Assembly (NCBI GenBank): GCA_038065835.1
Contig: JBBTQB010000029.1
Span: forward strand, 1 to 38,487
Direction of reading: 5' to 3'
Source: Patescibacteria group bacterium
Lineage (GTDB): Bacteria; Patescibacteriota; Minisyncoccia; Minisyncoccales; Staskawiczbacteraceae
Length of the DNA stretch: 38,487 nt
The first letter of the stretch is position 1; each line of letters starts with the position of its first letter. The notes under the pieces were generated by a model. It did not search any database and was not told the origin of the DNA. It was given only the letters and a program-made list of their open reading frames with translations. Positions 398-36,684 of the stretch are shown here, piece by piece. The position numbers and the translations under genes were made by a program.

Positions 398-472
398 TGG
401 TGCCTCCACTGGGAATCGAACCCAGATTGACGGATTAAGAGTCCGCTACTTTGCCAGTTAAGTTATGGAGGC
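398..472 (-). tRNA. tRNA-Lys(CUU), CCA encoded
   Basis: The reverse complement folds as a cloverleaf: acceptor GCCTCCA/TGGAGGC, anticodon stem GCGGA/TCCGT, loop CTCTTAA, T-arm CTGGG-TTCGATT-CCCAG, 3' ACCA. Confidence 0.85.
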
Positions 473-488
473 AAGCAATGAAATCAAT

Positions 489-1031
489 TTAAAATGTAAA
501 TATAAACCAAGTTCCTGGATAACCTAGAATAAATAAGACGGTATTGATAATAAGCCACGAGCCCAAGACCAAAAGTATTCCCCACAATGTTCCCCATAAT
601 ATGCTTTTACCTGTGTCAAATAATTTAGGGTATGCTCCGCCGATTAGCAATAATATACCACCTATTATTATAAGTAGTCCAGCCAAAGGAACAGCTATGG
701 TCCAGATGACAAATTTGTAAATATTTAAAATCAGTATGAAAACATGATATAATTCGCAACGGCAAACAAGTTGAACATTACAAGAGACTCTTGAGCTGCA
801 AGAACTACATGGAACAGTGGAAGTAAATAGTCCAAAAACACCACCAGTAGTAGTACAAATAGTTTCTCTGCCGCAAGGAACTAATCCCTTTGTGCCTCCA
901 TTTGATTCATCACATATAGCTGTTGCCTGAGCCTGAGCCTGAGCTTGAGCCTGAGCCTGAGCTTGAGCAATTACAGGAGGTAAATTTAAAAGCAAAAGTG
1001 ACAATAGAAATAAAAAAAATATCTTTTTCAT
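489..1031 (-). CDS. Secreted Cys-rich protein with C-terminal TM helices, CPR T4SS-pilin-like (TrbC/VirB2-type)
   Basis: Signal peptide MKKIFFLFLLSLLLL, an (AQ)n linker, a Cys-rich segment, then two hydrophobic helices. The architecture matches 37406-38017 and 38086-38427. The family assignment is from memory of PF18895-type proteins. Confidence 0.55.
   Translation of the reverse strand: MKKIFFLFLLSLLLLNLPPVIAQAQAQAQAQAQAQATAICDESNGGTKGLVPCGRETICTTTGGVFGLFTSTVPCSSCSSRVSCNVQLVCRCELYHVFILILNIYKFVIWTIAVPLAGLLIIIGGILLLIGGAYPKLFDTGKSILWGTLWGILLVLGSWLIINTVLFILGYPGTWFIFTF
925..968. repeat. Hexanucleotide microsatellite (GCCTGA/GCTTGA)n encoding the (AQ)n linker
   Basis: About 7 tandem 6-nt units, read directly, lying inside the 489-1031 CDS. 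Confidence 0.85.
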
Positions 1032-1181
1032 ACAATATTAAATAGAAATTAGAAACTGGAAAATATAAGTTTTCATAATATATATGCCCCCAGAAGGACT
1101 TTCATCCCCCACAAATATTTGCCTTGTGCCTCCGGCACGACTCGAACGCGCAACTTATGGTCCGAAGCCATAAATGATATC

Positions 1182-1288
1182 CCCGCCTGCCTCGCTAGTG
1201 CCCTCGGAGGGACTCGAACCCCCAATAACAGGTTCGAAGCCTGTCGTGATATCCATTTCACCACGAGGGCTCGGCATAGGCGGGCAGG
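1182..1288 (-). mobile_element. Family-A GC-rich hairpin element (CCTGCCCGC...GCAGGCGGG) carrying a tRNA gene
   Basis: Its termini are the same as in the copies at 12794, 15152, 15627, 17001, 31991 and 36268. Here the interior is a full tRNA. Confidence 0.6.
1199..1270 (-). tRNA. tRNA-Arg(UCG), nested copy, no encoded CCA
   Basis: GCCCTCG-TG-GTGA-AATGGATA-TCAC-G-ACAGG-CTTCGAA-CCTGT-TATT-GGGGG-TTCGAGT-CCCTC-CGAGGGC-A. Confidence 0.8.
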
Positions 1289-1528
1289 CATTTCACCACG
1301 GAGGCAAATTTTTGTGGGGGACAAGCCCTCAATCTATGGTCAAAAGTCCGTATGTGTTATCTGATTATAGCATAGAGGCAATGTTAGCTAATAATACATT
1401 AAAAATTGAAAAAGAGCAAGAATTAAGATAATATGTACTAATTTCTAATTTCGAAATATTAATAAGTTTTAATAATTCGAAAATTCTAATTTTATTCAAA
1501 ATTCAGAATTAGAAATTCAAAATTTATC

Positions 1529-3169
1529 ATGACAATTCCTAAAGAAATCAAAGCTGTTATCTCAAAATTGCAAAAGGCTGGGTTTCAGGCCTACATTGTC
1601 GGAGGATGTGTAAGAGATTTTTTGCTTGAAACAGAACCCAAAGACTGGGACGTTGCCACTAATGCCAAGCCAGAAGAAATACAGAAAGTTTTTCCAAATA
1701 ACTTTTACGAAAATAGGTTTTTAACGGTCACAGTAAAAACTGGCCCCGTTAGAAACAGCCCGCCCCAAAGGCCCTCTGGGCGCGCTAGCGCGGGCGGTGT
1801 TTCTAACGGGGCTGGCAGCGGTATTAATGAGGTTGAAGTTACAACGTATAGGCTAGAAGCCAAATACTCCGATAAAAGGCATCCAGATGAGATAAGATTT
1901 GCAAAAACTCTAGATGAGGATTTAGAAAGGAGAGACTTTACAGTCAATGCTATGGCGATAAGTGTTCTAAATGATAGAAATGTTCTAGATGTTGTAAATG
2001 GAAAAAATCAAGCGGAGCGATTGAACAAGCGAGCAAGAGCGAGCGATAGAACAGTTAAAACATATACAACAGAAGTTGTGGATTTGTTTGATGGACAGAA
2101 GGATTTGAAAAATAAAATAATAAGAACAGTTGGCAATCCAGAAGAAAGATTTAACGAGGATGCTTTGAGAATGCTAAGGGCTGTTAGGCTAGCCTCAACA
2201 CTGGGTTTTTCCGCTAAAGGCGGACCAGCCTTAGGCTGGAAAATAGAACCAAAAACCGCAGAGGCGATTAAAAAAAACAGCACTTGGTTAGAGACTATTT
2301 CAAAAGAAAGAATCAGAGATGAATTTTTGAAGATTGTTATGTCAGACAATGCATCTGATGGCATAGAGTTGCTCCGTGAACTAGAGCTTTTAAAGTTCAT
2401 TCTGCCAGAGCTTTTAGAAAACTATGGAGTTGGCCAAAATAAACATCACATTTACGACTGCTATACCCATGCCTTAAAAGCTCTAGCGTATACTGCTAAG
2501 AAAAAGTTTAATGTGCACGTGAGGTTAGCTGCTCTTTTCCATGATATTGCAAAACCCAGAGTAAAAGCAGGAGAGGGAAAAGATTCAACATTTTACAACC
2601 ACGAAGTTGTTGGGGCAAAAATGACTTTTGAAATTTTAAACAGATTGAAGTTTTCTAAGAAGGATGTTGAAAAAATAACAAAGCTTGTAAGATATCACTT
2701 GTTTTATTACAATGTTGATGAAGTTTCAGAGTCATCGGTAAGGAGGCTTGTAAAGAATGTGGGGACGGAAAACATAGAAGAGCTTTTACAAGTAAGGCAA
2801 GCTGACAGGATTGGATCTGGCGTTCCCAAAGCCGAGCCCTATAAGTTACGTCACTTAAAATATGTAATAGATAAGGTTTCCCAAGACCCGATTTCAGCCA
2901 AAATGCTAAAAGCTAACGGAAAGGATGTAATGGATATTTTAAATATTCAGCCGGGACCTAAAGTTGGCCAGATATTGAGCGTATTGCTGGGATATGTATT
3001 AGAGGATCCAAAAAAGAATAGTAAAGAGTTCTTGGAAAAAGAAATCAAAAAACTAGGAAAACTTTCTGAAAAAGAATTAGAGAAACTTTCTGTAAAATCA
3101 AAAGAAGAAAGAATGAAAATGGAAACTAAAAAAGATGAAATGACAAAGCAAAAGTATTGGGTTACCTAA
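1529..3169 (+). CDS. cca: CCA-adding tRNA nucleotidyltransferase with C-terminal HD domain
   Basis: N-terminal GGCVRDFLL...DWDVAT polymerase-beta head motif. HD region ...AALFHDIAKP.... Lys/Glu-rich tail. It is needed because many tRNAs here lack an encoded CCA. Confidence 0.85.
   Translation: MTIPKEIKAVISKLQKAGFQAYIVGGCVRDFLLETEPKDWDVATNAKPEEIQKVFPNNFYENRFLTVTVKTGPVRNSPPQRPSGRASAGGVSNGAGSGINEVEVTTYRLEAKYSDKRHPDEIRFAKTLDEDLERRDFTVNAMAISVLNDRNVLDVVNGKNQAERLNKRARASDRTVKTYTTEVVDLFDGQKDLKNKIIRTVGNPEERFNEDALRMLRAVRLASTLGFSAKGGPALGWKIEPKTAEAIKKNSTWLETISKERIRDEFLKIVMSDNASDGIELLRELELLKFILPELLENYGVGQNKHHIYDCYTHALKALAYTAKKKFNVHVRLAALFHDIAKPRVKAGEGKDSTFYNHEVVGAKMTFEILNRLKFSKKDVEKITKLVRYHLFYYNVDEVSESSVRRLVKNVGTENIEELLQVRQADRIGSGVPKAEPYKLRHLKYVIDKVSQDPISAKMLKANGKDVMDILNIQPGPKVGQILSVLLGYVLEDPKKNSKEFLEKEIKKLGKLSEKELEKLSVKSKEERMKMETKKDEMTKQKYWVT
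1743..1812. repeat. Family-D GC-rich palindrome inserted in frame in cca
   Basis: Arms GCCCCGTTAGAAACAGCCCGC (1743-1763) and GCGGGCGGTGTTTCTAACGGGGC (1790-1812). It encodes about GPVRNSPPQRPSGRASAGGVSNGAG. The termini match those of the 5227-5545 element. Confidence 0.7.
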
Positions 3170-3243
3170 TCATTTTTACGAAGATAAAAATGGAATTTTC
3201 AATTTTCAATTTTAAATCAATTTTTAATTCTTTAATTCTAAAA

Positions 3244-3315
3244 CGGGGATTAGTGTAGCGGCAACACGCACCGTTCGGGACGGTGAAACGGTGGGTCCAA
3301 CTCCCACATCCCCGA
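3244..3315 (+). tRNA. tRNA-Pro(CGG), no encoded CCA
   Basis: Acceptor CGGGGAT/ATCCCCG, anticodon arm CACCG-TTCGGGA-CGGTG (G37). The T-loop, read as TCCAACT, is atypical. Confidence 0.8.
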
Positions 3316-3321
3316 CAAAAA

Positions 3322-3531
3322 GGACCTGTAGTTAAATGGTAGAACAGCGCATTCGTCCCGATGGTGAAATTATTTTCACCATACGAGGATCCGCGATGGT
3401 TTTGGTGGGCCCGTGGTCTAACGGCATGACATCACATTCGCATTGTGGAAGTGGGAGTTCAATTCTCCCCGGGTCCACCAAAACTATCGGACATTGCGCA
3501 AATGGCGGTTCGATTCCGCCTAGGTCCACCA
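3322..3531 (+). tRNA. tRNA (Thr(CGU)-like) interrupted in the anticodon loop by a ~137-nt insert, CCA encoded
   Basis: The 5' part GGACCTG-TA-GTTAAATGGTAGAAC-A-GCGCA-TTCGT (3322-3356) and the 3' part AT-TGCGC-AAAT-GGCGG-TTCGATT-CCGCC-TAGGTCC-ACCA (3494-3531) form a cloverleaf. The anticodon call depends on the exact junction (CGT, or CGC/CAC). Confidence 0.55.
3407..3480 (+). tRNA. tRNA-Ala(CGC), nested copy, CCA encoded
   Basis: Acceptor GGGCCCG/CGGGTCC with G3:U70, anticodon arm TCACA-TTCGCAT-TGTGG, T-arm GGGAG-TTCAATT-CTCCC. Confidence 0.85.
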
Positions 3532-3595
3532 AGATTAAACTTTCAGGAATTTTGTCGATTGATTGTATTTTAACAGAGAAATGAACGGGCGACCA

Positions 3596-3635
3596 GCAAA
3601 AAATTTCCTGGGGCCAGGGGCAGGAAATTTTTTGC
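3596..3635. repeat. Family-C hairpin, copy 1
   Basis: Perfect 15-bp stem GCAAAAAATTTCCTG / CAGGAAATTTTTTGC with GC-rich loop GGGCCAGGGG. Outer ACGGG/CCCGT pairing extends the stem. Confidence 0.8.
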
Positions 3636-3690
3636 CCGTACGCCGATGGAAAAAACTTGACTTACGTATGAGTTTTGCTATGATTAACTC

Positions 3691-3975
3691 ATGAAAAAGA
3701 CAATGTTAGAATTTAGTCTTCCAGTATCTATTTTGCGGGAAGGTAAAAAATATGTCGCCTATACACCAGCGCTGGATTTGTCTACTTCTGGTAATACATT
3801 TGAGCAAGCAAAAAAAAGATTCGATGAAATGGTTTATCTTTTTTTTGAAGAAATTTTTAAAAAAGGAACTGCAAAAGAGGTTTTAATGGAATTGGGATGG
3901 CAGAAAATTCATGAAAAATGGAATCCACCAATTGTGATTTCCAATGAGTCGCAGATGGTTAAATTGTCTTACTAG
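3691..3975 (+). CDS. hicB: HicB-like antitoxin (UPF0150 fold)
   Basis: 94 aa. The N-terminus ...FSLPVSILREGKKYVAYTPALDLSTSGNTFEQAKKRFDEMV... is typical of HicB-like domains. The gene is immediately followed by a HicA-like frame. Confidence 0.7.
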   Translation: MKKTMLEFSLPVSILREGKKYVAYTPALDLSTSGNTFEQAKKRFDEMVYLFFEEIFKKGTAKEVLMELGWQKIHEKWNPPIVISNESQMVKLSY

Positions 3976-3976
3976 T

Positions 3977-4207
3977 ATGGCGGGTATAAAACCTATTCAC
4001 TAGAAAAAGTTTGAAAAATTTCTTCTTTTCGCGGGATGTAATTTTGAGCGGGAAAAAGGTGATCACAGGATTTATTGGAGAAAAGATTTAAAAAGGCCGG
4101 TAGTCATTCCTAGAGAAAGCGAATTACCAGTATTTATTATCAGAAATAATTTGAGAGTTTTAAAAATAGATACTACGGAATATCTTGAAATTTTAAAAAG
4201 AATTTAA
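3977..4207 (+). pseudogene. hicA: HicA-like toxin with an in-frame TAG at codon 9
   Basis: Reads MAGIKPIH*KKFEKFLLFAGCNFEREKGDHRIYWRKDLKRPVVIPRESELPVFIIRNNLRVLKIDTTEYLEILKRI. The KG-x-H...IP pattern resembles HicA/YcfA. There is no in-frame start after the stop, and no ORF is listed in the track. Confidence 0.55.
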
Positions 4208-4278
4208 AAGCTAATTGCCTTTTTGAAATTTTGTGCTAGATTTAGCCTAGCCCATTAACATCAAAAAAGGAGAAAAAC

Positions 4279-4827
4279 ATGTCAGAACAAGAAAGTTTAA
4301 GTACCCCCGACGGCGATTCAAAAGATGTGATAGATGAGGCATTGGGGGGACCTGATTCCGATTTGGCGCCGATGCCAAAAGAAGAACCAAGCGTTGAATT
4401 TGATGAGTTGCTGGATGAGGGGAGGCTCGAGATTAAGTCTGTGGAAGATGGAGTCGAAAAAGCAAGAGGTATCCTGGAGGATCTTTTGAAGAACAATAAC
4501 CCAGAAACACGTTCCGAAGAGATCCAAATTCTGCTAGAAAAATCCAAAATAGAAAAGGATCCCGGGCTAATGCAATTGATTGAGAGGGCTGGAAGATCCT
4601 TGGCTTTTGGAGCGGCGCTTAACGGACTTCTCAATGAAATGAATAAACGCCATAAAGGAAGGGCACTCGGCTTTATTGGCGAAAACGATGCAGCCAAGCT
4701 GGAACGCTACTTGCCAACACCAAATCTTGGAAGTAACGATGATTTGGAAAAAAACAGTAGCGACGGAAGAAAGATTGCAGATTTAGGAGAAATACTTGAG
4801 CAGATAGGAAAGCTGGCATCGGCATAA
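4279..4827 (+). CDS. Hypothetical acidic protein (GC-richer than the backbone)
   Basis: 182-aa ORF with AAGGAG 8 nt upstream of the ATG, and a hairpin plus T-run about 15-45 nt downstream. No family recognised. Confidence 0.6.
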   Translation: MSEQESLSTPDGDSKDVIDEALGGPDSDLAPMPKEEPSVEFDELLDEGRLEIKSVEDGVEKARGILEDLLKNNNPETRSEEIQILLEKSKIEKDPGLMQLIERAGRSLAFGAALNGLLNEMNKRHKGRALGFIGENDAAKLERYLPTPNLGSNDDLEKNSSDGRKIADLGEILEQIGKLASA

Positions 4828-4911
4828 CAACACAAAGAAGCCTGAGATTGCATCAAGGGCTTTCTTTTTTGTAAAACAATTAAAACACACAACTTTTTTT
4901 AGTGGCGAGAA

Positions 4912-4949
4912 GGCAAAAATTTTCTGGCCTGGGAGAGAAAATTTTTGCC
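4912..4949. repeat. Family-C hairpin, copy 2
   Basis: Stem GGCAAAAATTTTCT / AGAAAATTTTTGCC with loop GGCCTGGGAG. Orientation and architecture match 3596-3635. Confidence 0.8.
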
Positions 4950-4980
4950 CGCTGGCCGTTCGCCGCTCTGCCCCCGTTTT

Positions 4981-5016
4981 CCGCGCGCCCCGCGGGGCGC
5001 GCGGTGTCCATTTTTC
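4981..5016 (+). terminator. GC-rich hairpin with T-run
   Basis: CCGCGCGCC-CCGCGG-GGCGCGCGG followed by TGTCCATTTTTCG. Confidence 0.45.
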
Positions 5017-5125
5017 GTTTGTTTTTCAAAATCTTTCTTGCTAAAATACAATTAATCCGCTTCGGGGTTTTGCTCGTAGTAAGTTCTAACTTTTTTCAAT
5101 AAAGACCACCTCGTTAGAAGTCTGG

Positions 5126-5189
5126 ACAAAATGCTAATTACGAGACCCGGTCTCGTCAACGAGACCGGGTCTCGTAATTAGCATTTTGT
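5126..5189. repeat. Perfect 29-bp inverted repeat with a 6-nt loop, containing the family-B core ACGAGACCCGGTCTCGT
   Basis: ACAAAATGCTAATTACGAGACCCGGTCTC - GTCAAC - GAGACCGGGTCTCGTAATTAGCATTTTGT. Confidence 0.85.
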
Positions 5190-5226
5190 TGTATGATGCT
5201 TTCTATTTATCGATCTAATAGTTTAA

Positions 5227-5545
5227 CCCCGTAGAATTTAAATTACATCCGCCAAGGGCCGCGGGTCTCGTACTAAATCAGCTTTAGAAGCCCAAAAATG
5301 ATATGATTTCAAGGAGTAACGAGGAGACTTATCAGGCGGTCAGCGATAAGTCGACGAAGTTGCGACACAGAAATCAGCCATTTTTGGGCTCCCCCGAAGG
5401 GCGGGTGAATTCAGGCAAGATTCATCGTTGCTTGTCGCTCACAATGCGATTGCATTAGGCTCGCTCCTCGCGCCTTGAATCTTGCCTGAATTCTGACCGC
5501 TAAATTGATTCGGTACGAGACCCGCGGCCCAAGCTTCTAACGGGG
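5227..5545. mobile_element. ~320-nt multi-helix element (MITE-like, or an unknown structured RNA) with family-D termini
   Basis: Nested perfect helices: 5227-5236/5535-5545, 5256-5273/5513-5530 (18 bp), 5289-5300/5379-5390 (12 bp), 5407-5424/5476-5493 (18 bp), plus small hairpins. Confidence 0.5.
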
Positions 5546-5598: not shown

Positions 5599-6573
5599 TT
5601 ATCTCACTATCGCATAGTTTGTCACGATGCGCACACGATAATTTCCCATTGATACGTTGTTCCAAGGACTTGGCACGATGTGGAGGAATAATCTGCCTTC
5701 ATCTGTAGGAATGCCATCATAGCGCTCTCCAATGATGAATTTATTTCCCTGTTCTCCAATTCGGCCTAGAAGAACTCCAGCCATGAAAGTTCCTCCTTTG
5801 CCAGCAGTAGTATAGCCCTTTGGGGTAGTCATGTACTGACCAGCTCCCTGCGGCCAAAGGTCTACTTGTCCATTAGCTGTTGCAATCAGTCTCATATTTT
5901 TTCTAATGATGATGCCGGTATCGAGCCAATCGCTCGGATTGACATGTTTTGCAGCGTCAACATTAAACTCCCTTTGGTGTTTGTTGCCTCCGCAAATTGT
6001 TCGGAGGCAAGAGAGCTTGAGACTGAGATCGCCCAGTTGACTAGAGCGCACTTTAAGTAAAGTGCCCTTTAATTGTCCTCGCGCAGTGAACTCCGCTGTT
6101 CTAACAGTATCTTGCTCATCTGCAGAAAGAAGCTCAGGTGGCGCTCTTTTTTTAATGTTCTTGATAATTTGTGTTACGCGTTTTGCGCGCTCAAGATCAT
6201 CCTTGCACTCAACCTTTTTTAAGAGCGGATACACAAAGCATTCAATATCTTCTTCTTGGAGATATTTTGTAGCTTCTTCCCGTTCCTTGTAAACACTACT
6301 GCCAAGGCTAGCGATTGAGCTCTCAATTTTTTCTCTGAGGTTAGGAGGATAGTGAATCCCAAACTCAATTTGGCAGACATCCCCCAGAGGGATTTTGAGC
6401 TCGCCATACTTGGTGGAAAGCGTAAGATCTGCTTCTAAAATAGTAACCTTCAAAAAGTCGCCGCCCCTTAGTTTAACATCAAAGCAAGGAAGCTTCTTTG
6501 GTTGAGAAGTTTCCCCTACAGATGTAGAGGTTGCTAAAAGCAGACAAACCACCATTCCAAACATGTACTTCAT
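5599..6573 (-). CDS. Secreted protein with a C-terminal PA-IL/LecA-like lectin-type domain (tentative)
   Basis: Signal peptide MKYMFGMVVCLLLATSTSVG. The C-terminus ...GQVDLWPQGAGQYMTTPKGYTTAGKGGTFMAGVLLGRIGEQGNKFIIGERYDG...GRLFLHIVPSPWNNVSMGNYRVRI resembles LecA-like domains from memory. AGGAG RBS and its own terminator. GC-richer than the backbone. Confidence 0.6.
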   Translation of the reverse strand: MKYMFGMVVCLLLATSTSVGETSQPKKLPCFDVKLRGGDFLKVTILEADLTLSTKYGELKIPLGDVCQIEFGIHYPPNLREKIESSIASLGSSVYKEREEATKYLQEEDIECFVYPLLKKVECKDDLERAKRVTQIIKNIKKRAPPELLSADEQDTVRTAEFTARGQLKGTLLKVRSSQLGDLSLKLSCLRTICGGNKHQREFNVDAAKHVNPSDWLDTGIIIRKNMRLIATANGQVDLWPQGAGQYMTTPKGYTTAGKGGTFMAGVLLGRIGEQGNKFIIGERYDGIPTDEGRLFLHIVPSPWNNVSMGNYRVRIVTNYAIVR

Positions 6574-6693: not shown

Positions 6694-6767
6694 GGGCTCA
6701 TAGTAAAATGGTATTACGCACCCTTCGCATGGGTGAAGTCCGGGTTCAACTCCCGGTGAGTCCACCA
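6694..6767 (+). tRNA. tRNA-Ala(CGC), second and divergent copy, CCA encoded
   Basis: Acceptor GGGCTCA/TGAGTCC with G3:U70, anticodon arm CACCC-TTCGCAT-GGGTG, T-arm CCGGG-TTCAACT-CCCGG. Confidence 0.85.
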
Positions 6768-10102: not shown

Positions 10103-10177
10103 AAAGACTCTAAAGAGTGCAGGATTCGAACTATCATCAATCTGATGATAGTTCGAATCCTGCACTCTAATGTCTTT
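10103..10177. repeat. Complete copy of the 26-nt-arm palindrome (tRNA T-arm-like sequence)
   Basis: AGAGTGCAGGATTCGAACTATCATCA-ATC-TGATGATAGTTCGAATCCTGCACTCT, extended by AAAGAC/GTCTTT. Confidence 0.9.
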
Positions 10178-11986: not shown

Positions 11987-14020
11987 ATGCTAGTAGAATT
12001 TTTCCCTATTATTGTTTCGCTCTTTGCGATTGCTTTTGTTTGGTTTTTAGTGAAAAAAATCAGCAAAGCGCCAATAGCAAGAGACAAGGCAATTGAAATA
12101 ACTAAAGCTATTCAAGAGGGAGCTGTTGCCTATTTAAAGAGGCAGTATAAAACGGTAAGCATTGTTGCCGTTATTTTATTTCTGTTTTTATGGATTTTCA
12201 TGGGTCCAAAGATGGCATTTGGATTTTTGATTGGAGCTTTTTTGTCGGGATTGGCTGGCTTTATTGGAATGTGGGTATCAACACAAACAAATACAAGAGT
12301 TGCAGAAGGAGCAAAAAGAGGATTAGGCCACGCTTTAGATTTGGCATTTAAAGGAGGCTTGGTAACAGGGCTTTTAGTAGTAAGCTTAGGTCTTTTGGCA
12401 ATATCTGGATATTACTTTTTAACAAAGAATATTCAACCCCTTATTGCCCTGGGCTTTGGAGCTAGTTTAATTTCTGTTTTTGCCAGAGTTGGCGGTGGAA
12501 TTTACACAAAAGCGGCTGACGTTGGAGCCGATCTGGTAGGAAAAGTTGAAAAAGGAATTCCAGAAGATGACCCAAGAAACCCAGCTGTAATAGCTGACCA
12601 AGTTGGAGATAATGTTGGAGATTGTGCTGGTATGGCAGCTGATATTTTTGAAACCTATTCTGTAACAATAGTTGCCACAATGATTTTGGGTACTTTGTTG
12701 TATCCCGCATCTCCGCAGTTTGTATTACTGCCGCTATTTTTGGGAAGCATTTCAATTTTAACTTCTATTATTGGAAGCTTCTTTGTAAAATTACCTGCCC
12801 GTAATGCTTCGCATAGCGATGCAGGCGGGGGTAAGTCAAAAAACATTATGGGAGCCATGTACAAGGGCTTAGCTGTTTCGGTTGTGTTGTCTGCTATTGG
12901 TTTTTACCCCTTAATTTTAAAAATGATGGCAGGACAGGATATTTCAGTAATCAATTTGTATCTCTCAACATTGGTTGGATTAGTTATAGCTGCCGGAATG
13001 TTTGTCATAACAGAATACTACACCTCAAAGAGATATAGCCCAGTGAGGTCAATTGCCAAAGCTTCAGAAACCGGACACGGAACAAATATTATAAGAGGGC
13101 TTGGGCTTGGTATGCAGTCAACTGCTTTTCCTGTTTTGTTGATTGCGATTGGAACCGTTGTATGCTACTGGCTAGCTGGAATTTACGGAGTGGCTTTGGC
13201 AGTGATGGCAATGCTTTCCATATCTGGAATTGTTGTTGGTGTTGACGCTTACGGACCAATTACAGACAATGCAGGTGGAATTGCAGAAATGGCTGGGCTT
13301 CCAGAAGAAATAAGAAATATTACTGACTCACTAGATGCTGTAGGGAATACCACCAAAGCCGTAACCAAGGGCTACGCTATCGCTTCAGCGGGTTTGGCAG
13401 CATTAGTTTTGTTTGCTGTCTACAGCCAAGAAGTAATGAATTTAATGGGCTCAGCAAACGCTGTAAGCTTTGTCTTGGATAATCCAAAAGTGATTGCCGG
13501 ATTATTAATAGGAGGGCTACTTCCCTATTTGTTTGCCAGCTTCTTAATGGGGGCTGTCGGAAAAACCGCAGGCAAAGTTGTTGAAGAAGTCCGCAGGCAA
13601 TTTAAAAATATTGCTGGTTTGATGGAAGGCACGGCAAAACCAGAATACGGCAAATGCGTAGATATTGTAACCAAGGCAGCCATTAAAGAAATGATGGTAC
13701 CAGCTTTAATTCCGGTGGTAGCTCCAATACTAGTCGGGTGGATTTTAGGAGTTGAGGCTTTGGGAGGATTATTGATTGGATCAATTGTCACAGGATTGTT
13801 TGTGGGCATCTCCATGACTACTGGTGGAGCTGCATGGGACAATGCCAAAAAATACATTGAAGAAGGACACCACGGAGGCAAGAAATCATTCGCCCACCAA
13901 GCCGCTGTAACCGGAGACACCGTGGGAGATCCTTGCAAGGATACTGCAGGTCCAGCAATCAACCCAATGATCAAAGTGTTGAATATTGTTGCCCTCTTAA
14001 TAGTTTCTTTCTTGGTGTAA
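11987..14020 (+). CDS. hppA: Membrane-bound proton/sodium-translocating pyrophosphatase
   Basis: 677 aa, polytopic, with signature motifs …[20 protein letters not shown]…, …[17 protein letters not shown]…, …DNAGGIAEM…, …[25 protein letters not shown]. Confidence 0.9.
12794..12829 (+). repeat. Family-A hairpin element, 36 nt, in frame in hppA
   Basis: CCTGCCCG-TAATGCTTCGCATAGCGAT-GCAGGCGGG, encoding [12 protein letters not shown]. It is a GC-rich patch in an AT-rich gene. Confidence 0.75.
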
Positions 14021-14372
14021 GGTTAGTTTGATTTGGTTTTTTAGTAGTTCTGTTTTAATATCAACTCTCAATTGAATCCATTTTTCTTGTAGGTCAGCCC
14101 ATTTTCTGCTTTTATTTATTAGGATAAAATTCATCTTCCTTGTTTTCTCGCTATGTTTGCTTAAGGGGAGCAATTTCTTTACCAATGAGATTATTTCCCT
14201 CCTACGATTTATTGTTAGGTCAAACATATTTTGGTTATAAGTTCCATAGTTGGTTTTAGTTCCCTTTTTCCTATCTAGATATAAATAAGGATGATAATTG
14301 AATGTTTCCAGGCGTGTCTTTATTTGTTTTAATATTTCTGAATCACCAGTTCTGATTTTAACAATTTGGGGT
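13997..14372 (-). pseudogene. Truncated LAGLIDADG-type homing endonuclease remnant (C-terminal half)
   Basis: The frame is open from a TGA at ~14373 and reads ...KIRTGDSEILKQIKTRLETFNYHPYLYLDRKK...MFDLTINRRREIISLVKKLLPLSKHSEK.... It resembles the second half of the 20443-21174 protein, has no plausible full-length start, and overlaps the hppA 3' end. Confidence 0.35.
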
Positions 14373-14391
14373 CAGACCCAGGCCTGACCCC
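14368..14391. repeat. GC-rich hairpin GGGGTCAG-ACCCAGGC-CTGACCCC
   Basis: 8-bp stem. The loop shares the CCCAGGCC/GGCCTGGG motif with the family-C loops. Confidence 0.6.
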
Positions 14392-15151: not shown

Positions 15152-15220
15152 CCTGCCCGCATTGCTACGCCAGCCCGACAGCCTAGCAGTCTTGGCGGCG
15201 GGCAAAGCGTTGCAGGCGGG
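15152..15220 (+). repeat. Family-A hairpin element, long (69-nt) intergenic copy
   Basis: CCTGCCCGC-ATTGCTACGCC...AAAGCGTT-GCAGGCGGG with an internal GCCCG...CGGGC sub-hairpin. Confidence 0.8.
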
Positions 15221-15626: not shown

Positions 15627-15686
15627 CCTGCCCGCCAAAGCCCCTGCCTGTGCGTATCCGCACGCAGACAGGTTGGCGCAGGCGGG
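15627..15686 (+). repeat. Family-A hairpin element, long (60-nt) intergenic copy
   Basis: CCTGCCCGC-CAAAGCCCCTGCCTGTGCGTATCCGCACGCAGACAGGTTGGC-GCAGGCGGG. Confidence 0.8.
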
Positions 15687-16349: not shown

Positions 16350-17666
16350 GTGAAAACTGCAAAAAAGGATTTAAGCAAATCGCAATTAGAAATAGAATTC
16401 GAATTAACCGCAGAAGAATTTAATGAATATGTTGATAGAGCCTTAGATCATTTAAAGTCTCATACAAAGATTGATGGGTTTAGGCAGGGACAAGTGCCGC
16501 GGGATTTGGTGGAAAAGAAAGTTGGGCAAGAAAACTTGCTAATGGAAGCAGGAGATTTGGCAGTTAAAAAAAGCTATGCAGGATATATAAATGAAAACGC
16601 CTTGGAACCCATTGGAAGACCCGAAGTGCAAATTAAAAAGATTGCGAAGGGAAATCCTTTTTTGTTTACGGTGAAAATTTCCATTTTGCCTGAAGTCATT
16701 CTGCCGAATTATAAAGAAATCGCCTCACAAGTAAAAGCAGAATCAATTTCCGTTGATGAAAAAGAAATTGAAGATGCCCTAAGTTATCTTCAAAAATCTC
16801 GTGCAAAGTTTTCGCAAATTGATCGAGGGGCAGAAGTAAAAGATTTTGTTGAGATTGAATATTCAAGCAAAGACATAAGTGATGGAAAAAAAATAAAAGA
16901 CAGATTTATTCTTGGTCAAAGCAGGTTTATGAGAGATTTTGAAGATAATATTTTGGGCATGAAAGCTGAAGACCAAAAGGAATTCAAAGTAAAGTTTCCA
17001 CCCGCCAGCAACGCTGAGCGTAGCTCTGCGGGCTGGGACAACGCGCCCAATAACCCTGGAGAAAAAGAAAGCACTTTTAAAGTAAAAATGGTCTCTGTGC
17101 AAAAAATAGAGTTGCCCGAGATTAATGATGAATTTGCAAAATCTCTTGGAGTTTTCGATAGTTTAGTTGCACTAAAAAGTAATTTGAAAGAAGGAATTAC
17201 AATGGAAAAGCAAGAGACCGAGAAGCAAAAAAAACAAGGCGAAGTTTTGAGTAATATTGCAGAGAAGATTAAATTTGATTTGCCAGAAAAAATGGTGGAG
17301 CTTGAAAAAGACAGATTATTACATGATTTAAAACACCAGGTTACAGAGCAGTTTAAAATGCCTTTTGGAGAGTACTTAAAGTCTGTTAAGAAAACAGAGG
17401 AAGAGATAAAGAATAATTATAAGCTGGATGCTGAAAAAAGGATTAAAAATTATCTTGTTTTAAGGCAGATTGGCAAGGCAGAAAATGTTGAAGTTTCAAA
17501 AGAAGAAATTGAGGAAGAAATGAATAAATTTATTAAAAATTATACAAAAGAGGAAGCAGATAAAATTGACATTGATCAACTAAAAGAGTATACTAAAGAT
17601 GCAATTATGAATGAGAAAGTATTTCAAATTCTTGAAACACTTTCTCAAAATTTTTTAAGTCGTTAA
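16350..17666 (+). CDS. tig: Trigger factor
   Basis: GTG start. N-terminal ribosome-binding region ...IDGFRQGQVP..., PPIase-like middle domain and C-terminal arms. Sits directly upstream of clpP, as is typical. Confidence 0.85.
   Translation: MKTAKKDLSKSQLEIEFELTAEEFNEYVDRALDHLKSHTKIDGFRQGQVPRDLVEKKVGQENLLMEAGDLAVKKSYAGYINENALEPIGRPEVQIKKIAKGNPFLFTVKISILPEVILPNYKEIASQVKAESISVDEKEIEDALSYLQKSRAKFSQIDRGAEVKDFVEIEYSSKDISDGKKIKDRFILGQSRFMRDFEDNILGMKAEDQKEFKVKFPPASNAERSSAGWDNAPNNPGEKESTFKVKMVSVQKIELPEINDEFAKSLGVFDSLVALKSNLKEGITMEKQETEKQKKQGEVLSNIAEKIKFDLPEKMVELEKDRLLHDLKHQVTEQFKMPFGEYLKSVKKTEEEIKNNYKLDAEKRIKNYLVLRQIGKAENVEVSKEEIEEEMNKFIKNYTKEEADKIDIDQLKEYTKDAIMNEKVFQILETLSQNFLSR
17001..17036 (-). 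repeat. Family-A hairpin element, 36 nt, reverse orientation, in frame in tig
   Basis: The plus strand CCCGCCAGC-AACGCTGAGCGTAGCTCT-GCGGGCTGG equals the reverse complement of the family consensus with 3-4 changes. It encodes PASNAERSSAGW. Confidence 0.65.
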
Positions 17667-20085: not shown

Positions 20086-20134
20086 CTCACTCAAACCAAA
20101 AACTGCCCATGGGCAGTTTTTGGTTTGAGTGAGC
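20086..20134. terminator. 23-bp perfect palindrome (candidate bidirectional terminator) abutting tRNA-Gly
   Basis: CTCACTCAAACCAAAAACTGCCC-ATG-GGGCAGTTTTTGGTTTGAGTGAG. Confidence 0.5.
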
Positions 20135-20385: not shown

Positions 20386-20394
20386 ATATTTCTG

Positions 20395-20477
20395 TGCGCG
20401 GGACAGGAGTCGAACCTGCACGCCCGTGAGGGCACTGGCACCTCAAGCCAGCTCGGCTACCGTTACGACACCCGCGC
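20395..20477 (-). tRNA. tRNA-Leu(GAG), class II with a long variable arm
   Basis: Acceptor GCGCGGG/CCCGCGC, anticodon arm CTGGC-TTGAGGT-GCCAG, variable arm TGCCCTCACGGGCGT. Confidence 0.85.
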
Positions 20478-21174
20478 GTGTTTTTTGGCGTGCTATTGAT
20501 AATATATTTTCTATTTTAATTTTTTTTCTTTTTAAACAAATTACTTCACTATTGTAATAAATTCTTTCCAGTAATTTCAGAGATTCAGTCTTGGCGTACT
20601 TAAGTTGGTAAACTGAACTATTAATGCCTTTAGTAATGTGGCCTTTAATTTTTAAATTTTTTGTTATTGTTTCTTTAAGCCATTCCACATGATTCTTACT
20701 GGCAGAAACAAAAACTATATAAAACATAAAACTTGATCTCCATCGATTATCCCAATACGAGTACGATGAACCATCACCGTCAAAATGTCCCCGGAGAAAA
20801 TCAAAAAAATATTTTCTAGGAATCTTCAGCTTACTAAGAGTTTTTGATTTATTAGGAAATAAACCAATGCTTAACAAAAATTTATAAAAGTTTACATCTC
20901 CAAATTGTAATACATAATATTTCTTTTCCTCCTCTCCACCTCGAGCTTTTTTCCCAATTTTATTATTAAGGTTAAGACAAAGTTTGAAATTATCTATTTG
21001 CTCTTTGTCTTTTGAAGTAAAACTTATATGACGGCCATCTTTTATAAGACATCCATCGGTGGTAATCAGTCCTATTGCATAGGCTAGTTGAGGTGACCAT
21101 AGTGTTGATACTTTATTAAGGGGTTTCATTAGTTCATTATACCTCAAAGTATAAGTGAATACCAATCTTGTCAT
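20443..21174 (-). CDS. Free-standing double-motif LAGLIDADG homing endonuclease
   Basis: LAYAIGLITTDGCL and FLRGHFDGDGSS motifs. The 3' end of the ORF runs about 35 nt into tRNA-Leu. Confidence 0.8.
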   Translation of the reverse strand: MTRLVFTYTLRYNELMKPLNKVSTLWSPQLAYAIGLITTDGCLIKDGRHISFTSKDKEQIDNFKLCLNLNNKIGKKARGGEEEKKYYVLQFGDVNFYKFLLSIGLFPNKSKTLSKLKIPRKYFFDFLRGHFDGDGSSYSYWDNRWRSSFMFYIVFVSASKNHVEWLKETITKNLKIKGHITKGINSSVYQLKYAKTESLKLLERIYYNSEVICLKRKKIKIENILSIARQKTRAGVVTVAELA

Positions 21175-22102: not shown

Positions 22103-22822
22103 TTAGATTTTAAAATTATTTAGTATTTTCTTGAGATCTTCTGGTAAATCCGAATTGAATTCTTTCACGCTACCGTTCGGCAATCTTATCTTTAAATATG
22201 ATGAGTGTAAAAACTGCCTATTCAACCCTTTTGGAACAGGAGAGTCTTTAAATCCATACATCTTATCCCCGGCAATTGGATGATGGATATAAGCTAAATG
22301 ACATCTTATTTGGTGCTTCCTGCCTGTTTTTGGCTTAACTTCTAATAAAGAATATCTATCAAACCTCTCTAAAACTTTATACTCTGTAATCGCCTCTCTT
22401 TTCCCCGCGAAAGCCGGGCTTTTGCGGGGAAAGGCTTTTTGCTTGCGGGGGTCGGCAGGAGATCTTCCAATCAATGTTTCAATTCTCCCTTCTTCTTCTT
22501 TCACTATACCGTTGGCAAGAGCCATGTACTTCTTCTCCACCTCTCTACTTTTAAACTGTTTTTGTAAAAAAAGCAAGGATTCGTTGTTTTTTGCGACTAA
22601 AAGTATGCCCGATGTATCTTTATCTAGTCTATGAACAATCCCATGCCTTGTCGCTTCTCCAACACTCTTTAATTCTGGCTTTTGCTCTAAAAGATAATCT
22701 ATTAATGTCTTACCAACGAGGCTGGGTCTCGTTGATCTCGTTGATTCTAGAAAAACCACTACTCCCGCCGGCTTATCAACTACCAAAACATCATTATCTT
22801 CATAAATTACTTTAAAATCCAT
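22103..22822 (-). CDS. RluA-family 23S rRNA pseudouridine synthase (RluD-like, lacking an S4 domain)
   Basis: ...VVDKPAG...HRLDKDTSGILLVAKN... catalytic motif, and ...GRKHQIRCHLA.... Confidence 0.85.
   Translation of the reverse strand: MDFKVIYEDNDVLVVDKPAGVVVFLESTRSTRPSLVGKTLIDYLLEQKPELKSVGEATRHGIVHRLDKDTSGILLVAKNNESLLFLQKQFKSREVEKKYMALANGIVKEEEGRIETLIGRSPADPRKQKAFPRKSPAFAGKREAITEYKVLERFDRYSLLEVKPKTGRKHQIRCHLAYIHHPIAGDKMYGFKDSPVPKGLNRQFLHSSYLKIRLPNGSVKEFNSDLPEDLKKILNNFKI
22402..22459 (-). repeat. GC-rich repeat patch in frame in the pseudouridine synthase gene
   Basis: The minus strand reads CCTGCCGAC-CCCCGCAAGCAAAAAGCC-TTTCCCCGCAAAAGCCC-GGCTTTCGCGGGGA, which is two direct copies and one inverted copy of CCCCGCAAAAGCC. 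It encodes about SPADPRKQKAFPRKSPAFAGK. Confidence 0.6.
22712..22734 (-). repeat. Family-B hairpin in frame in the pseudouridine synthase gene
   Basis: The minus strand CAACGAGACCCAGCCTCGTTGGT matches 15343-15365 at 22 of 23 positions. It is preceded by a 9-nt duplication (TCAACGAGA x2) and encodes STRSTRPSLVGK. Confidence 0.75.
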
Positions 22823-27548: not shown

Positions 27549-27650
27549 TAAAATAGTACCTCACATTACACTTCATGCGATTTTGCTCATACTTGTGGGT
27601 AAAATCGTGTGAAGTGTTTCGAGATTTCCCATTTCCGAAAGGATAAGTCC

Positions 27651-31937: not shown

Positions 31938-32623
31938 TGAAAATTACTTGGGCTGGGCAGGCCTGCTTTCAAATTTCAGTCTCTGGCTCACCTAACCGTA
32001 ATGCTACAAATGTAGCAGGCGGGAAAGACAATCAGGTAAATATTGTTATTGACCCATTTGGAGAAATCGGCTTAAAAATACCTAACTTTGAAGCTGATAT
32101 TTTGCTTTTGACTCATGGTCACGAAGACCATAATAACGCAAAAGCTATTAGGGGAAGTCCATTTTTAATCAACGGACCGGGCGAATACGAAGTAAAAGGT
32201 GTTTTTGTACAGGGCATTGATTCTTTTCATGATGATAGCTTGGGTAAAGATAGGGGCAGGAATACTATTTACACAATTGAAGCAGAAGATATGAAATTTT
32301 GCCACCTTGGCGATCTTGGGCAGAAACAGCTAACTGATGAACAATTGGAAAAAATTGGCACAGTTGATATTTTAATGATTCCGGTGGGCGGAGTTTATAC
32401 TATTGATTCGTCGGATGCTTCAAAAATCATTGGACAAATAGAACCCAAAATTGTAATTCCAATGCATTATGAGTTGCCCGGCTTAAAATTCAAATTAGAT
32501 GGCGTTTCAAAATTCTTAAAGTCAATGGGCAAAAACTCTATTCAGCCACAGGATAAACTAACAATCAAAACCAGCACCCTTCCCAAGGACAGAGAAATGG
32601 AAATAATAGTTTTAAAGCCATAA
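31937..32623 (+). CDS. Metallo-beta-lactamase-fold hydrolase (UPF0173-like)
   Basis: MKITWAGQACFQI...LLTHGHEDHNN.... The track ORF starts at TTG 31901. Confidence 0.75.
   Translation: MKITWAGQACFQISVSGSPNRNATNVAGGKDNQVNIVIDPFGEIGLKIPNFEADILLLTHGHEDHNNAKAIRGSPFLINGPGEYEVKGVFVQGIDSFHDDSLGKDRGRNTIYTIEAEDMKFCHLGDLGQKQLTDEQLEKIGTVDILMIPVGGVYTIDSSDASKIIGQIEPKIVIPMHYELPGLKFKLDGVSKFLKSMGKNSIQPQDKLTIKTSTLPKDREMEIIVLKP
31991..32023 (+). repeat. Family-A hairpin element, 33 nt, degenerate left end, in frame in the MBL hydrolase gene
   Basis: CCTAACCG-TAATGCTACAAATGTA-GCAGGCGGG, encoding PNRNATNVAGG. Confidence 0.6.
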
Positions 32624-35900: not shown

Positions 35901-36684
35901 GGTAGCCAGGGGTAGGGGGTTGATGAATTTTTTGGAAATCTCAGCTGAGGAGAAAGTTTTGTCACTAGTGCCTCTGGAAAAATTAGAAGTAGGGCAAGAA
36001 AGAAACGAAAAATATTTAATGATGGTTACCAAAAACGGGCGGATTAAAAAAACATCCTTGGAAGAGTTTAAGAACGTAAGAAAATCAGGGATAATAGCTA
36101 TAAAATTAGAAAAAGGAGACTTGCTGAAAAAAGTTGTTAAAACCAGTGGCCAAGATGACATAATTTTGGCAACAAAAAATGGTTTATCCATTAGATTTAA
36201 AGAAAAGGACATAAGACCGATGGGCAGAGCAACAGCAGGGGTTAGAGGCATAAGGCTTAAGAAAGGACCTGCCCGCAGTGCTACAGGCGTTGCAGGCGGG
36301 GATGAAGTCATTGGAATGGACGTCATCTCGGCAAATGGCAAAGAGCAAATGGCAAATGGTAAGAAAGTAAAGCAGTACTTTTTGGTTGTAATGGAAAATG
36401 GATATGGTAAAAGAACAGAAATTTCCCAGTATAAAGTTCAAGGAAGAGGAGGTTCTGGGATAAAAACTGCAAATATTACTTCAAAGACTGGCAGAATAGT
36501 TATGTCCTGCATTTTAGATGACTCAACAGAAAACGAAGACTTGATAGTAATATCTCAAAAAGGCCAAGTTATAAGGACGGTTACAAAATCAATATCTTTG
36601 CTTGGTAGAGCAACGCAAGGAGTTAGAATAATGAGGTTGGACCAGGGCGATAAAGTTGCTTCTGGAGCTTGTTTTAAGGAGTAA
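32965..36684 (+). CDS. gyrA: DNA gyrase subunit A, intein-containing
   Basis: ...RALPDVRDGLKPVHRRIL..., YHPHGD, ...AAQRYTEARL (active-site Tyr), and C-terminal beta-pinwheel repeats. Confidence 0.92.
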   Translation: MAKEEPEKIQAIGQVKKREIVQELKESYIDYAMSVIVARALPDVRDGLKPVHRRILFAMLEEGLRHNAKLRKSATVVGAVLGRYHPHGDIAVYDSMVRMAQDFNMRYPLVQGQGNFGCFTKDIKVKLTDGRDLTFEELVKEYHQGKKNFAFTVDSNGKIVIAEIKHPRKTIENAPIIKITLDNGETIKCTLNHKFMLKNGTCKEAQYLTEGESLMPLYTKLSERENDINLGGYELVFQPNSNSWYFTHMLADEWNIENNVYEKSQGRIRHHIDFNKLNNNPNNIKRIGWKEHWQIHYTIASRRHSEDALYREKIAKGRKDFWANAENRKKHSERMTIRNIKNWKKKDYRENMRAFLSEINKKYLAEHPERIEEIRKTASKTMKRLWQIPEYKSLFHKKIVASNKRRVTNLTGRSKFLRICKYLSNNNLEINKENYEKIRVDIFGGACFTTWDLGIGKYFKDNKDSVLFSINQNHKVIKKEFLNKNEDVYDLTVEVTHNFALSCGIFVHNSNDGDSPAAQRYTEARLSSIGEAMLADIEKDTVNFADNYDGTRKEPTVLPSPLPQLLLNGSLGIAVGMATNIPPHNLTELIDALIYLLDYPKSETSDLFQFIQGPDFPTGGVIYDQKEIISAYSQGKGSIIMRGKAEIIEKEKDGSEQIVISELPYQVLKSSLVENMASLVSEKKVEGIRDIKDLSDRQGMAIIIDIKKGFDPQRVLNRLYKFTNLQKTFHLNLLALVDGIQPEILSISDVLKYFIVHRTEVVTRRTKFDLERAKERAHILEGLMVALKKIDAVIALIKKSRDREDAKNNLIKKFRLTERQVIAILEMKLQTLAGLERKKIEDELKEILEKIKEFTAILKSPEKLKNIIKKELQELKEKFGDKRKTKVIKQKLGEISEIDLVPLEDTMVTLTTGGYIKRINPATYKIQKRGGKGIMGMKTMQDDIVEHFLFASTHDNLLFFTNSGKVFQTQVYEIPEGTRVARGRGLMNFLEISAEEKVLSLVPLEKLEVGQERNEKYLMMVTKNGRIKKTSLEEFKNVRKSGIIAIKLEKGDLLKKVVKTSGQDDIILATKNGLSIRFKEKDIRPMGRATAGVRGIRLKKGPARSATGVAGGDEVIGMDVISANGKEQMANGKKVKQYFLVVMENGYGKRTEISQYKVQGRGGSGIKTANITSKTGRIVMSCILDDSTENEDLIVISQKGQVIRTVTKSISLLGRATQGVRIMRLDQGDKVASGACFKE
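33316..34491 (+). mobile_element. GyrA intein (392 aa) with an HNH-type endonuclease region
   Basis: The host sequence QGQGNFG|...|SNDGDSPAAQRYTEARL is interrupted. Blocks: CFTKDIKV (Cys1), TLNH, RHHIDFNKLNNNPNNI (HNH-like), VYDLTVE...GIFVHN followed by Ser+1. The codon phase was checked. Confidence 0.85.
36268..36300 (+). repeat. Family-A hairpin element, 33 nt, in frame in gyrA
   Basis: CCTGCCCGC-AGTGCTACAGGCGTT-GCAGGCGGG, encoding PARSATGVAGG in the C-terminal domain. Confidence 0.75.

Follow-up and report, generated by a model that had tools for sequence, protein, structure and literature searches.

Family A, a 36-nt palindromic element found in conserved genes and in a tRNA gene of a Patescibacteria contig and in metagenomes

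Copies of family A in the window

The stretch of DNA analysed here (the window) is the 38,487-nt contig JBBTQB010000029.1 of a Patescibacteria group bacterium, with a G+C content of 37.6 per cent. It carries dispersed copies of a short GC-rich palindromic element, called family A, which had been noticed in a reading of the sequence alone (the original prediction). By Pfam assignment, which agrees with the gene names given in that prediction, the genes hosting or neighbouring possible copies code for an H+/Na+-pyrophosphatase (hppA), GyrA (gyrA), a metallo-beta-lactamase-fold (MBL) hydrolase, trigger factor (tig) and NusA (nusA). The closest source-named homologues of the window hppA protein are labelled Staskawiczbacteria, and an identical protein is encoded on contig CAYIEQ010000005.1 of assembly GCA_964362475.1.

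All seven copies originally proposed are present, with unchanged positions and lengths. Those in genes measure 36 (hppA), 33 (gyrA), 33 (MBL) and 36 nt (tig) and, as claimed, leave the reading frames open. The copies, and the two parts of a tRNA gene that surrounds one of them, are as follows.

12794..12829 (+): hppA, canonical copy of 36 nt (44.7 bits with the family model, E = 6e-13)
36268..36300 (+): 33-nt copy in the region of gyrA coding for the C-terminal domain (model 28.1 bits, E = 1e-7)
17001..17036 (-): tig, copy of 36 nt oriented against the gene (model 32.9 bits, E = 3e-9 on the minus strand)
15152..15220 (+): canonical intergenic copy, 5' of the pterin-4a-carbinolamine dehydratase gene (two half matches, 19.3 + 19.2 bits)
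31991..32023 (+): decayed 33-nt copy in the metallo-beta-lactamase-fold hydrolase gene (exact right end CAGGCGGG; model 7.4 bits, E = 0.3, marginal)
15627..15686 (+): intergenic 60-nt relative enclosing another hairpin (exact terminal 9-10 nt, CCTGCCCGCC...GCGCAGGCGGG)
1182..1288 (-): cargo copy with left arm CCTGCCCGCCTATGCCGA, tRNA-Arg(TCG) at 1198-1270 and right arm CTAGCGAGGCAGGCGGG (right arm 10.4 bits, E = 0.04)
1289..1305 (-): 5' part (17 nt) of an outer tRNA-Arg(TCG), up to the D-loop
1126..1181 (-): 3' part (56 nt) of the outer tRNA-Arg(TCG) (Rfam, weak partial tRNA at 1127-1190, 17.8 bits)

The scores refer to a sequence model derived from 63 distinct copies, of which almost all come from contigs other than the window. 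Four window members (hppA, tig, gyrA and the intergenic copy 15152-15220) are canonical, and the copy in the MBL gene is decayed, its left end being degenerate (CCTAACCG). The intergenic copy is split at its centre, between model positions 18 and 19: positions 1-19 correspond to 15152-15170 and positions 18-36 to 15202-15220, and the two halves are separated by a nested hairpin of another family (about 31 nt, approximately 15171-15201). The relative at 15627-15686 and the tRNA-carrying copy at 1182-1288 have only the ends in common with family A; in the former, whose minimum free energy fold is -31.9 kcal/mol, the model matches the terminal 9-mers only.

The terminal 8-mers CCTGCCCG and CAGGCGGG each have six exact matches in the window against 0.45 expected (13-fold), and six or more occurrences were found in none of 100 shuffles of the window. 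The sixth CCTGCCCG, at 33084, is not a family A copy; it belongs to plain gyrA coding sequence (ARALPDVRDG). The existence of one family is supported, as is the earlier view that the copies descend from one source. Two other details of the original prediction were not borne out. The subterminal TGCTAC and CGTT motifs, described for all copies, were found in only five of the seven, and the nusA segment 10680-10725, considered a possible degenerate relative, gives no match to the family model. According to comparison with orthologues, this segment is an 8-aa insert specific to the window.

Genic copies and their reading frame

Alignment with orthologues, which the original prediction had called for, identified the genic copies as lineage-specific in-frame insertions: they are absent from the orthologues of hppA, gyrA, tig and the MBL gene. 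In hppA, the insert is 12 residues long (aa 270-281) and lies between the codons of Leu269 and Gly282. Most of the 120 closest orthologues, some of them 88 per cent identical, have an empty site in which FFVKL is followed directly by GKS. The filled DNA differs from the empty one by exactly 36 additional nucleotides, with host bases neither duplicated nor lost. In the AlphaFold2 model (mean pLDDT 85.8), the sole segment below 50 is aa 271-284, that is, the insert, predicted as coil between two helices; the surface-loop placement expected earlier is thus consistent with a modelled disordered loop. The same insert is also present in an independent NCBI assembly (locus L001).

An insert of some kind occupies this site in twelve of the 120 hppA orthologues; these twelve are dispersed over the tree, each beside a sister whose site is empty. 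The three inserts for which the DNA was read all start with CCTGCCCGCC at one boundary and have different interiors. Given this scatter and these interiors, the site was either filled again and again or filled and then exactly vacated many times. Six orthologues (P0009, P0027, P0039, P0108, P0111 and P0113) have same-site inserts reading GPAPSEAEG or GPVLSRAEG, which probably come from a different GC-rich hairpin family. Two minimal forms, the hppA insert GPARAG (6 aa) of protein P0006 and the palindrome CCTGCCGGCAGG in the D-loop region of a tRNA (L083:2575-2586), look like internally deleted footprints of family A.

The gyrA insert reads PARSATGVAGG (aa 1102-1112) and corresponds to the canonical unit minus three loop bases. 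It lies between GIRLKK and DEVIGMD and is unique among the 120 closest homologues, whose consensus is GIRLKK-G-DEVIGMD. The length of GyrA (1239 aa) is due to an intein in its N-terminal domain (Pfam Intein_splicing, aa 127-509; window 33343-34492, plus strand). The tig insert reads P(P)ASNAERSSAGW and is missing from 11 Staskawiczbacteria orthologues, being unique among the 12 proteins compared; its DNA is a compensated variant (CCAGC...GCTGG) in which position 3 (A) covaries with position 30 (T). The MBL insert reads PNRNATNVAGG, is extra relative to PDB 1vjn and is absent from 136 representative homologues; it lies in a segment of variable length among homologues.

Elements of other origin also occur in genes of the window. 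The gene for the CCA-adding enzyme contains, at 1742-1812 (plus strand), a 71-nt double-layer hairpin of another family (70 per cent G+C, dG about -47 kcal/mol), which reads in frame as NSPPQRPSGRASAGGVSNGAG and is not found in orthologues. The same gene has a further window-specific insert, SAKGGPALGW.

Reading frame statistics were compiled for 92 copies on low-GC contigs, a copy being counted as genic when it lies inside an open reading frame (ORF) of at least 150 aa. There are 35 genic copies among the 92 (four of seven in the window). Sense phase 0, which reads PARNA(T/S)HS(V/D)AGG, is used by 30 of these 35 (P = 7e-14 against an expectation of one in four). The length is a multiple of three in 34 of the 35 genic and 44 of the 57 non-genic copies, and the canonical 36-nt unit has four of its six frames open, the other two containing TAG. 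The multiple-of-three lengths stressed in the original prediction therefore hold, but they are a property of the canonical unit itself, shared by intergenic copies, and not only the product of a filter acting on each copy in a gene.

Relative to neighbouring genes, intergenic copies are without orientation bias (26 co-oriented and 17 opposite, P = 0.22). Because these copies are unbiased, the orientation and phase bias of the genic ones is better attributed to selection on the translated product than to the insertion process. Such a bias is not expected if the RNA were cut out, and the frame statistics thus suggest that genic copies are translated rather than spliced.

Pairing, insertion sites and distribution

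The canonical unit CCTGCCCGCAATGCTACGCATAGCGTTGCAGGCGGG ends in two 9-nt sequences, CCTGCCCGC and GCAGGCGGG, which constitute terminal inverted repeats and are retained where the interior is replaced (15627-15686 and the tRNA-cargo units). The left end consists of CCTGC overlapping CCCGC, the right end of GCAGG overlapping GCGGG. The two arms had been described as differing at two positions; there are in fact no mismatches, since the overlapping pentamers pair perfectly in two registers, and this also explains the 'asymmetric termini' that had been noted. The single symmetric hairpin assumed earlier has to be abandoned: its covariation is below that of shuffles, and of the 63 distinct copies, 40 fail to form pair 11-26 and 42 fail to form pair 16-21.

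Two hairpins offset by 4-5 nt are 92.5 and 94.4 per cent paired. The first, formed by positions 1-32, has an unpaired CGGG at the 3' end of the unit, and the second, formed by positions 5-36, an unpaired CCTG at the 5' end. These offset hairpins contain 32 and 37 doubly changed cells, where shuffles give 7.8 and 14.5; no value as high occurred in 500 shuffles. The highest mutual information was obtained for pairs 16-26, 11-21, 3-30 and 12-30. A transcribed-strand signal was sought in the mispairs and none was seen, G-T and A-C being about equally frequent. Rfam searches (gathering and E-value thresholds) returned tRNAs and noise only, with no family, ribozyme or intron match for family A.

Neither the hppA junction nor a survey of flanks revealed a target-site duplication: 86 of 137 copies have no flank repeat, and in the others it is mostly 1-2 nt. 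Position -1 is A in 80 of 138 copies (58%), positions -2 to -12 are near background, and insertion occurs in either orientation. Family A was found inside family A, at or beside the loop centre, in three loci (L101, L141 and L210), family A copies with other hairpins in their loop occur in L139, L145 and L161, and head-to-tail tandems are present in L139, L148, L149 and L162. As the family occupies little of any genome, this nesting reflects a strong preference.

A strict pattern with about 22.5 specified bases matched at least 120 metagenome stretches, and 129 copies were counted in 120 loci. A length of exactly 36 nt is found in 60 of the first 86 copies, and 19 copies of the canonical unit are identical among the matches listed. 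They derive from JGI, ENA and NCBI data of many projects, on host contigs with a G+C content of 30 to 65 per cent. The four canonical window copies represent different subtypes, each common to many foreign contigs. Other host ORFs, recognized by eye from translations, appear to code for ribosomal proteins, UvrB, lysyl-tRNA synthetase, release factor 2 and a TonB-like protein. The original prediction counted on the motif recurring elsewhere in the genome; the family is found widely in metagenomes. It is not peculiar to the candidate phyla radiation (CPR). An identical 36-mer is present in the L-lysine 6-transaminase gene of Ca. Udaeobacter (Verrucomicrobia), where 7-8 of 120 homologues carry (S/G)PARNATHSVAGG and the remainder are empty, and the pattern occurs on 20 stretches of IMG/VR predicted viral contigs. 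No match was found in GenBank phages or PLSDB plasmids.

On one IMG/VR contig, inverted family A copies 3.7 kb apart were considered as a lead and rejected, the contig being full of other intergenic repeat modules (L206). Its intergenic regions (430-5300) consist of repeated modules CTCTCACAGAG and CTCTGTG heptamers, with a 127-nt inverted repeat whose copies are 3.6 kb apart. The family A copies are embedded in these modules between constant flanks, ctctgtgtcc before and tctgtgtcct after the element.

The original prediction rightly recognized that the copy at 1182-1288 carries a tRNA; it had not noticed that this copy, which has only the ends of the family, is nested in the D-loop of a second tRNA-Arg. 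The inner tRNA is a complete tRNA-Arg(TCG) called by ARAGORN and Rfam (66.7 bits). When 1182-1288 is excised in silico, ARAGORN calls a complete outer 73-nt tRNA-Arg(tcg). Outer and inner genes are 72 per cent identical, and their 19-nt D arms are identical. A homologous element is present on a metagenome contig with 47 per cent G+C (L149), where similar arms surround a tRNA-Arg(CCT) at 2799-2907. This unit follows GGATA in the D-loop of another copy of the same tRNA. That outer copy has the same arms on either side and contains one more inserted hairpin, with partial repeats of 70 nt located upstream. The window and L149 cargo tRNAs have a common acceptor stem, GCCCTCG/CGAGGGC. We read these units as one lineage of tRNA-Arg-carrying elements, tolerated in a tRNA-Arg gene because they bring a replacement; the outer tRNA-Arg would then be a dead copy and the inner one functional.

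The L149 repeats form a tandem array with a 70-nt period (2371-2976). Each unit combines a left arm resembling that of family A with the 5' part of tRNA-Arg(CCT) and a further hairpin, and the array ends in two nested complete units. It includes two 37-nt family-A-like copies head to tail (2445-2518), with right end GCGGGCGGG.

A second nest is located at 3322-3540 (plus strand) of the window. A tRNA-like outer gene, GGACCTGTAGTTAAATGG...GGTTCGATTCCGCCTAGGTCCACCA, is broken in the anticodon loop by about 140-160 nt comprising a small hairpin and a complete tRNA-Ala(CGC) (3407-3480) with a flanking stem of 12-13 bp. After manual excision, ARAGORN calls an outer tRNA with a Thr, Arg or Glu anticodon, depending on the boundaries chosen; in intron mode it does not call the outer tRNA of this nest. 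The arrangement recurs at L083:2552-2780, where the changes in the flanking stem are compensatory. Within 3.4 kb of the window lie two genes for tRNA-Ala(CGC), the nested one (3407-3480, plus strand) and a free-standing one (6694-6767, plus strand). The L083 locus also contains, at 2378-2530, a tRNA-Pro(CGG) within a 14-bp stem (CCCGCCAAAATTTTA / TAAAAATTTAGGTGGG), inside an apparent remnant of another tRNA (acceptor and T arm only). Other CPR tRNAs with leader-trailer stems of 10-15 bp were seen in L113, L149 and L197.

Candidate mechanism and relationship to known elements

Family A is probably a non-autonomous mobile DNA element. We propose that the two 9-nt ends would suffice for movement, the interior being replaceable by a hairpin or a whole tRNA-Arg gene, and that the ends, pairing in two registers, would form two alternative hairpins offset by 4-5 nt. 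Insertion would be seamless, in either orientation and with a mild preference for sites after A, and would strongly favour the apical loops of DNA hairpins: the element's own loop, other hairpin elements and the tRNA-Arg D-loop. Genic copies would stay in place and be translated, in sense phase 0 as the small polar peptide PARNA(T/S)HS(V/D)AGG, and selection would mainly keep sense phase-0 copies at permissive surface loops or protein termini; selection at such sites could account for the repeated hits in the same hppA loop. A derivative carrying tRNA-Arg could sit in a tRNA-Arg gene, since it supplies a substitute for that gene.

The mobilizing activity would be supplied in trans by an enzyme encoded elsewhere, which would probably act on folded single-stranded DNA. 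This is a guess, and an enzyme recognizing single-strand hairpins is our best one, as it fits both the seamless junctions and loop targeting, itself inferred from the nests. Pfam and related scans agree with the original prediction that there is no transposase in the window. Genes of the Y1_Tnp type, resembling the REP-associated tyrosine transposases (RAYTs) of repetitive extragenic palindromes (REPs), number four in about 2 Mb of loci: L082:5200-5841, L030 and L079 (Staskawiczbacteria or other Patescibacteria) and the metagenome locus L172. In L082, the 213-aa Y1_Tnp gene is flanked on both sides by one hairpin family (5166-5190 and 5858-5882), a REP/RAYT-style layout, and the window has one hairpin of this L082 type, GGGGTCAGACCCAGGCCTGACCCC (14368-14391).

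Several observations weigh against this interpretation. No mobilizing enzyme was found in the window or beside the copies, and no protein family recurs beside family A in the 120 loci, the top clusters being housekeeping proteins such as ribosomal proteins, in at most five loci. Each of the four Y1/RAYT-like genes is flanked by its own, different hairpin and none by family A; likewise, none of the loci examined has family A left and right ends around a transposase-like ORF. Host hairpin loops outside the family are weakly enriched as targets (5 against 1.2 expected), and seven reconstructed empty sites of the window, when folded, have no common target structure. The repeated hits at one hppA codon boundary may also mean that the element is truly site-specific, or that an old insertion was precisely lost many times. 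Identical 36-mers across phyla are hard to square with neutral decay of a repeat. Covariation was measured on a biased sample, as the search pattern fixed most terminal positions and variation there comes from a looser search within loci. Translation of the genic copies, lastly, is deduced from frame statistics.

The nearest alternative, which we consider unlikely, retains the same general mechanism and names the enzyme family: family A would be an element of the REP/REPIN type, moved by a RAYT, that is, a domesticated Y1 HUH transposase of the IS200/IS605 kind present once per genome. Family A resembles REPs as a GC-rich imperfect palindrome in many copies, its 36 nt falling in the 20-40 nt range and close to the REP size of about 35 nt (PMC3184786). 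Seamless insertion without target duplication, hairpin loops as hot spots for further insertion and a single-copy enzyme encoded elsewhere would fit as well, as would the Y1_Tnp genes with their own flanking hairpins in related loci and the L082-type hairpin in the window. Yet family A does not border any of the four Y1 genes. REPs end in a GTAG or CGTC tag (PMC3733652), whereas family A ends in CCTG.../...CGGG; GTAG is only internal to it, on the minus strand, as the reverse complement of positions 13-17 in one subtype. About 40 per cent of family A copies are genic, whereas REPs are extragenic by definition, and REP families are lineage-specific, whereas the family A 36-mer is identical across phyla.

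That the hairpins are intervening sequences removed from RNA, in an intron-like manner (for example by an endonuclease and a ligase), so that the host proteins and the outer tRNA-Arg are made without them, appears very improbable. It would account for the otherwise perfect cloverleaf of the interrupted tRNA-Arg and for the recurrence of the 3322-3540 nest in L083 with compensatory stem changes, and a precedent exists in animals, in which pairing triggers the excision of inverted-repeat transposons from mRNA (PMC12779559). Removal from RNA would not lead to one orientation and phase in 30 of 35 genic copies, with lengths other than multiples of three avoided in genes and intergenic copies unbiased. 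Nor do the flanks have conserved bases that could form a bulge-helix-bulge (a 4-bp helix between two 3-nt bulges) with the element; inspection of the junctions showed that, unlike those of archaeal-type introns and split tRNAs, they cannot supply the pairing. The lack of an Rfam family, ribozyme or intron match argues in the same direction, as does the further insertion gained by the outer tRNA of L149, which is what a dead gene would do. A last explanation, that the PAR...AGG segments are selected protein features (flexible linkers) or assembly or adapter artefacts, can hardly be right, even though the peptide is polar, Gly/Ala-rich and located in loops and many metagenome assemblies are error-prone. 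It is already contradicted by the copies that are intergenic, nested or in a tRNA. The nucleotide identity extends to synonymous positions across phyla, variants have compensatory base changes, the hppA insert recurs in the independent NCBI assembly, copies come from JGI, ENA and NCBI and many projects, and GenBank phages and PLSDB plasmids have no match.

Among known systems, the Rickettsia palindromic elements (RPEs) had been put forward as the closest parallel. The likeness in behaviour stands, membership does not. Like RPEs, family A is palindromic, is inserted both in frame into conserved protein genes and between genes, adds surface segments when translated, and occurs in small AT-rich genomes with no transposase nearby. 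It is set apart by size and taxon: RPEs measure about 105-146 bp (Ogata et al. 2000, cited in PMC3184786) and are confined to Rickettsia, whereas family A is 36 nt long and occurs in Patescibacteria, Verrucomicrobia and predicted viral contigs. Compared with MITEs, the miniature inverted-repeat transposable elements, it has the terminal inverted repeats and lacks the target-site duplication. Two-register hairpins, self-nesting and tRNA cargo have, to our knowledge, not been reported for RPEs.

Reliance on hairpin ends in place of plain inverted repeats, and seamless insertion and excision with no target duplication, are shared with the single-strand 'peel and paste' transposons of the IS200/IS605 group and their miniatures. 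Those carry two separate subterminal hairpins and integrate 3' of a set target of four or five nucleotides, whereas family A has one overlapping hairpin pair and only a preference for A at position -1; its intergenic copies, unlike these transposons, are without orientation bias relative to neighbouring genes. The mobile GC clusters, or double-hairpin elements, of fungal mitochondria are short GC-rich palindromes without an enzyme of their own, polymorphic and located between and inside genes of an AT-rich genome. Family A is likewise short, GC-rich, palindromic and scattered in an AT-rich genome; the fungal clusters are organellar, differ in sequence and are reported to make short target duplications, and we know of no tRNA cargo in them. 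Searches of the accessible literature by sequence and peptide, for CPR elements of the palindromic or MITE kind, for introns in the tRNAs of Patescibacteria and for nested tRNAs yielded nothing relevant, and the element appears to be undescribed, as had been supposed.

Family A looks like very small, widely travelling selfish DNA. If this is true, it is among the smallest mobile elements riding inside essential genes, and shows how an element can be shaped for survival there, by its multiple-of-three length, open frames and harmless peptide. Near-identity across Patescibacteria, Verrucomicrobia and predicted viral contigs would imply an unrecognized route of horizontal DNA transfer among uncultivated bacteria, and also points to an enzyme that handles folded DNA. 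In CPR genomes, such inserts distort the alignment of proteins, the calling of genes and the scanning for tRNAs; standard tools miss one tRNA-Arg of the window and probably a second tRNA. The tRNA-in-tRNA nests provide a directly testable case of tRNA gene replacement. A bolder version, which we regard as doubtful, would make family A a minimal hairpin transposon using an enzyme class new to such elements and moving between phyla, possibly on phages, with tRNA-Arg derivatives that home into resident tRNA-Arg D-loops and replace them as selfish 'tRNA replacement' cassettes. In a still bolder variant, the outer tRNA would be rescued by hairpin-guided excision from RNA, that is, by a bacterial route of tRNA splicing.

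The window contains further repeats and tRNA-associated features. A 243-aa LAGLIDADG_3 ORF (20443-21174, minus strand) overlaps, by its 3' end, the 5' part of a tRNA-Leu (20394-20477) at the head of a four-tRNA cluster. Perfect inverted repeats are present at 5126-5189 (31-nt arms), 10114-10168 (26 nt) and 20086-20133 (24 nt); the second holds the tRNA T-arm-like sequence GGATTCGAAC and the third abuts a tRNA-Gly. There are further short islands of 70-83 per cent G+C at 4947-5009, 22403-22429 and 27813-28238; among them, one hairpin lies inside a pseudouridine synthase gene and several lie in an unannotated 224-aa ORF (27609-28283).

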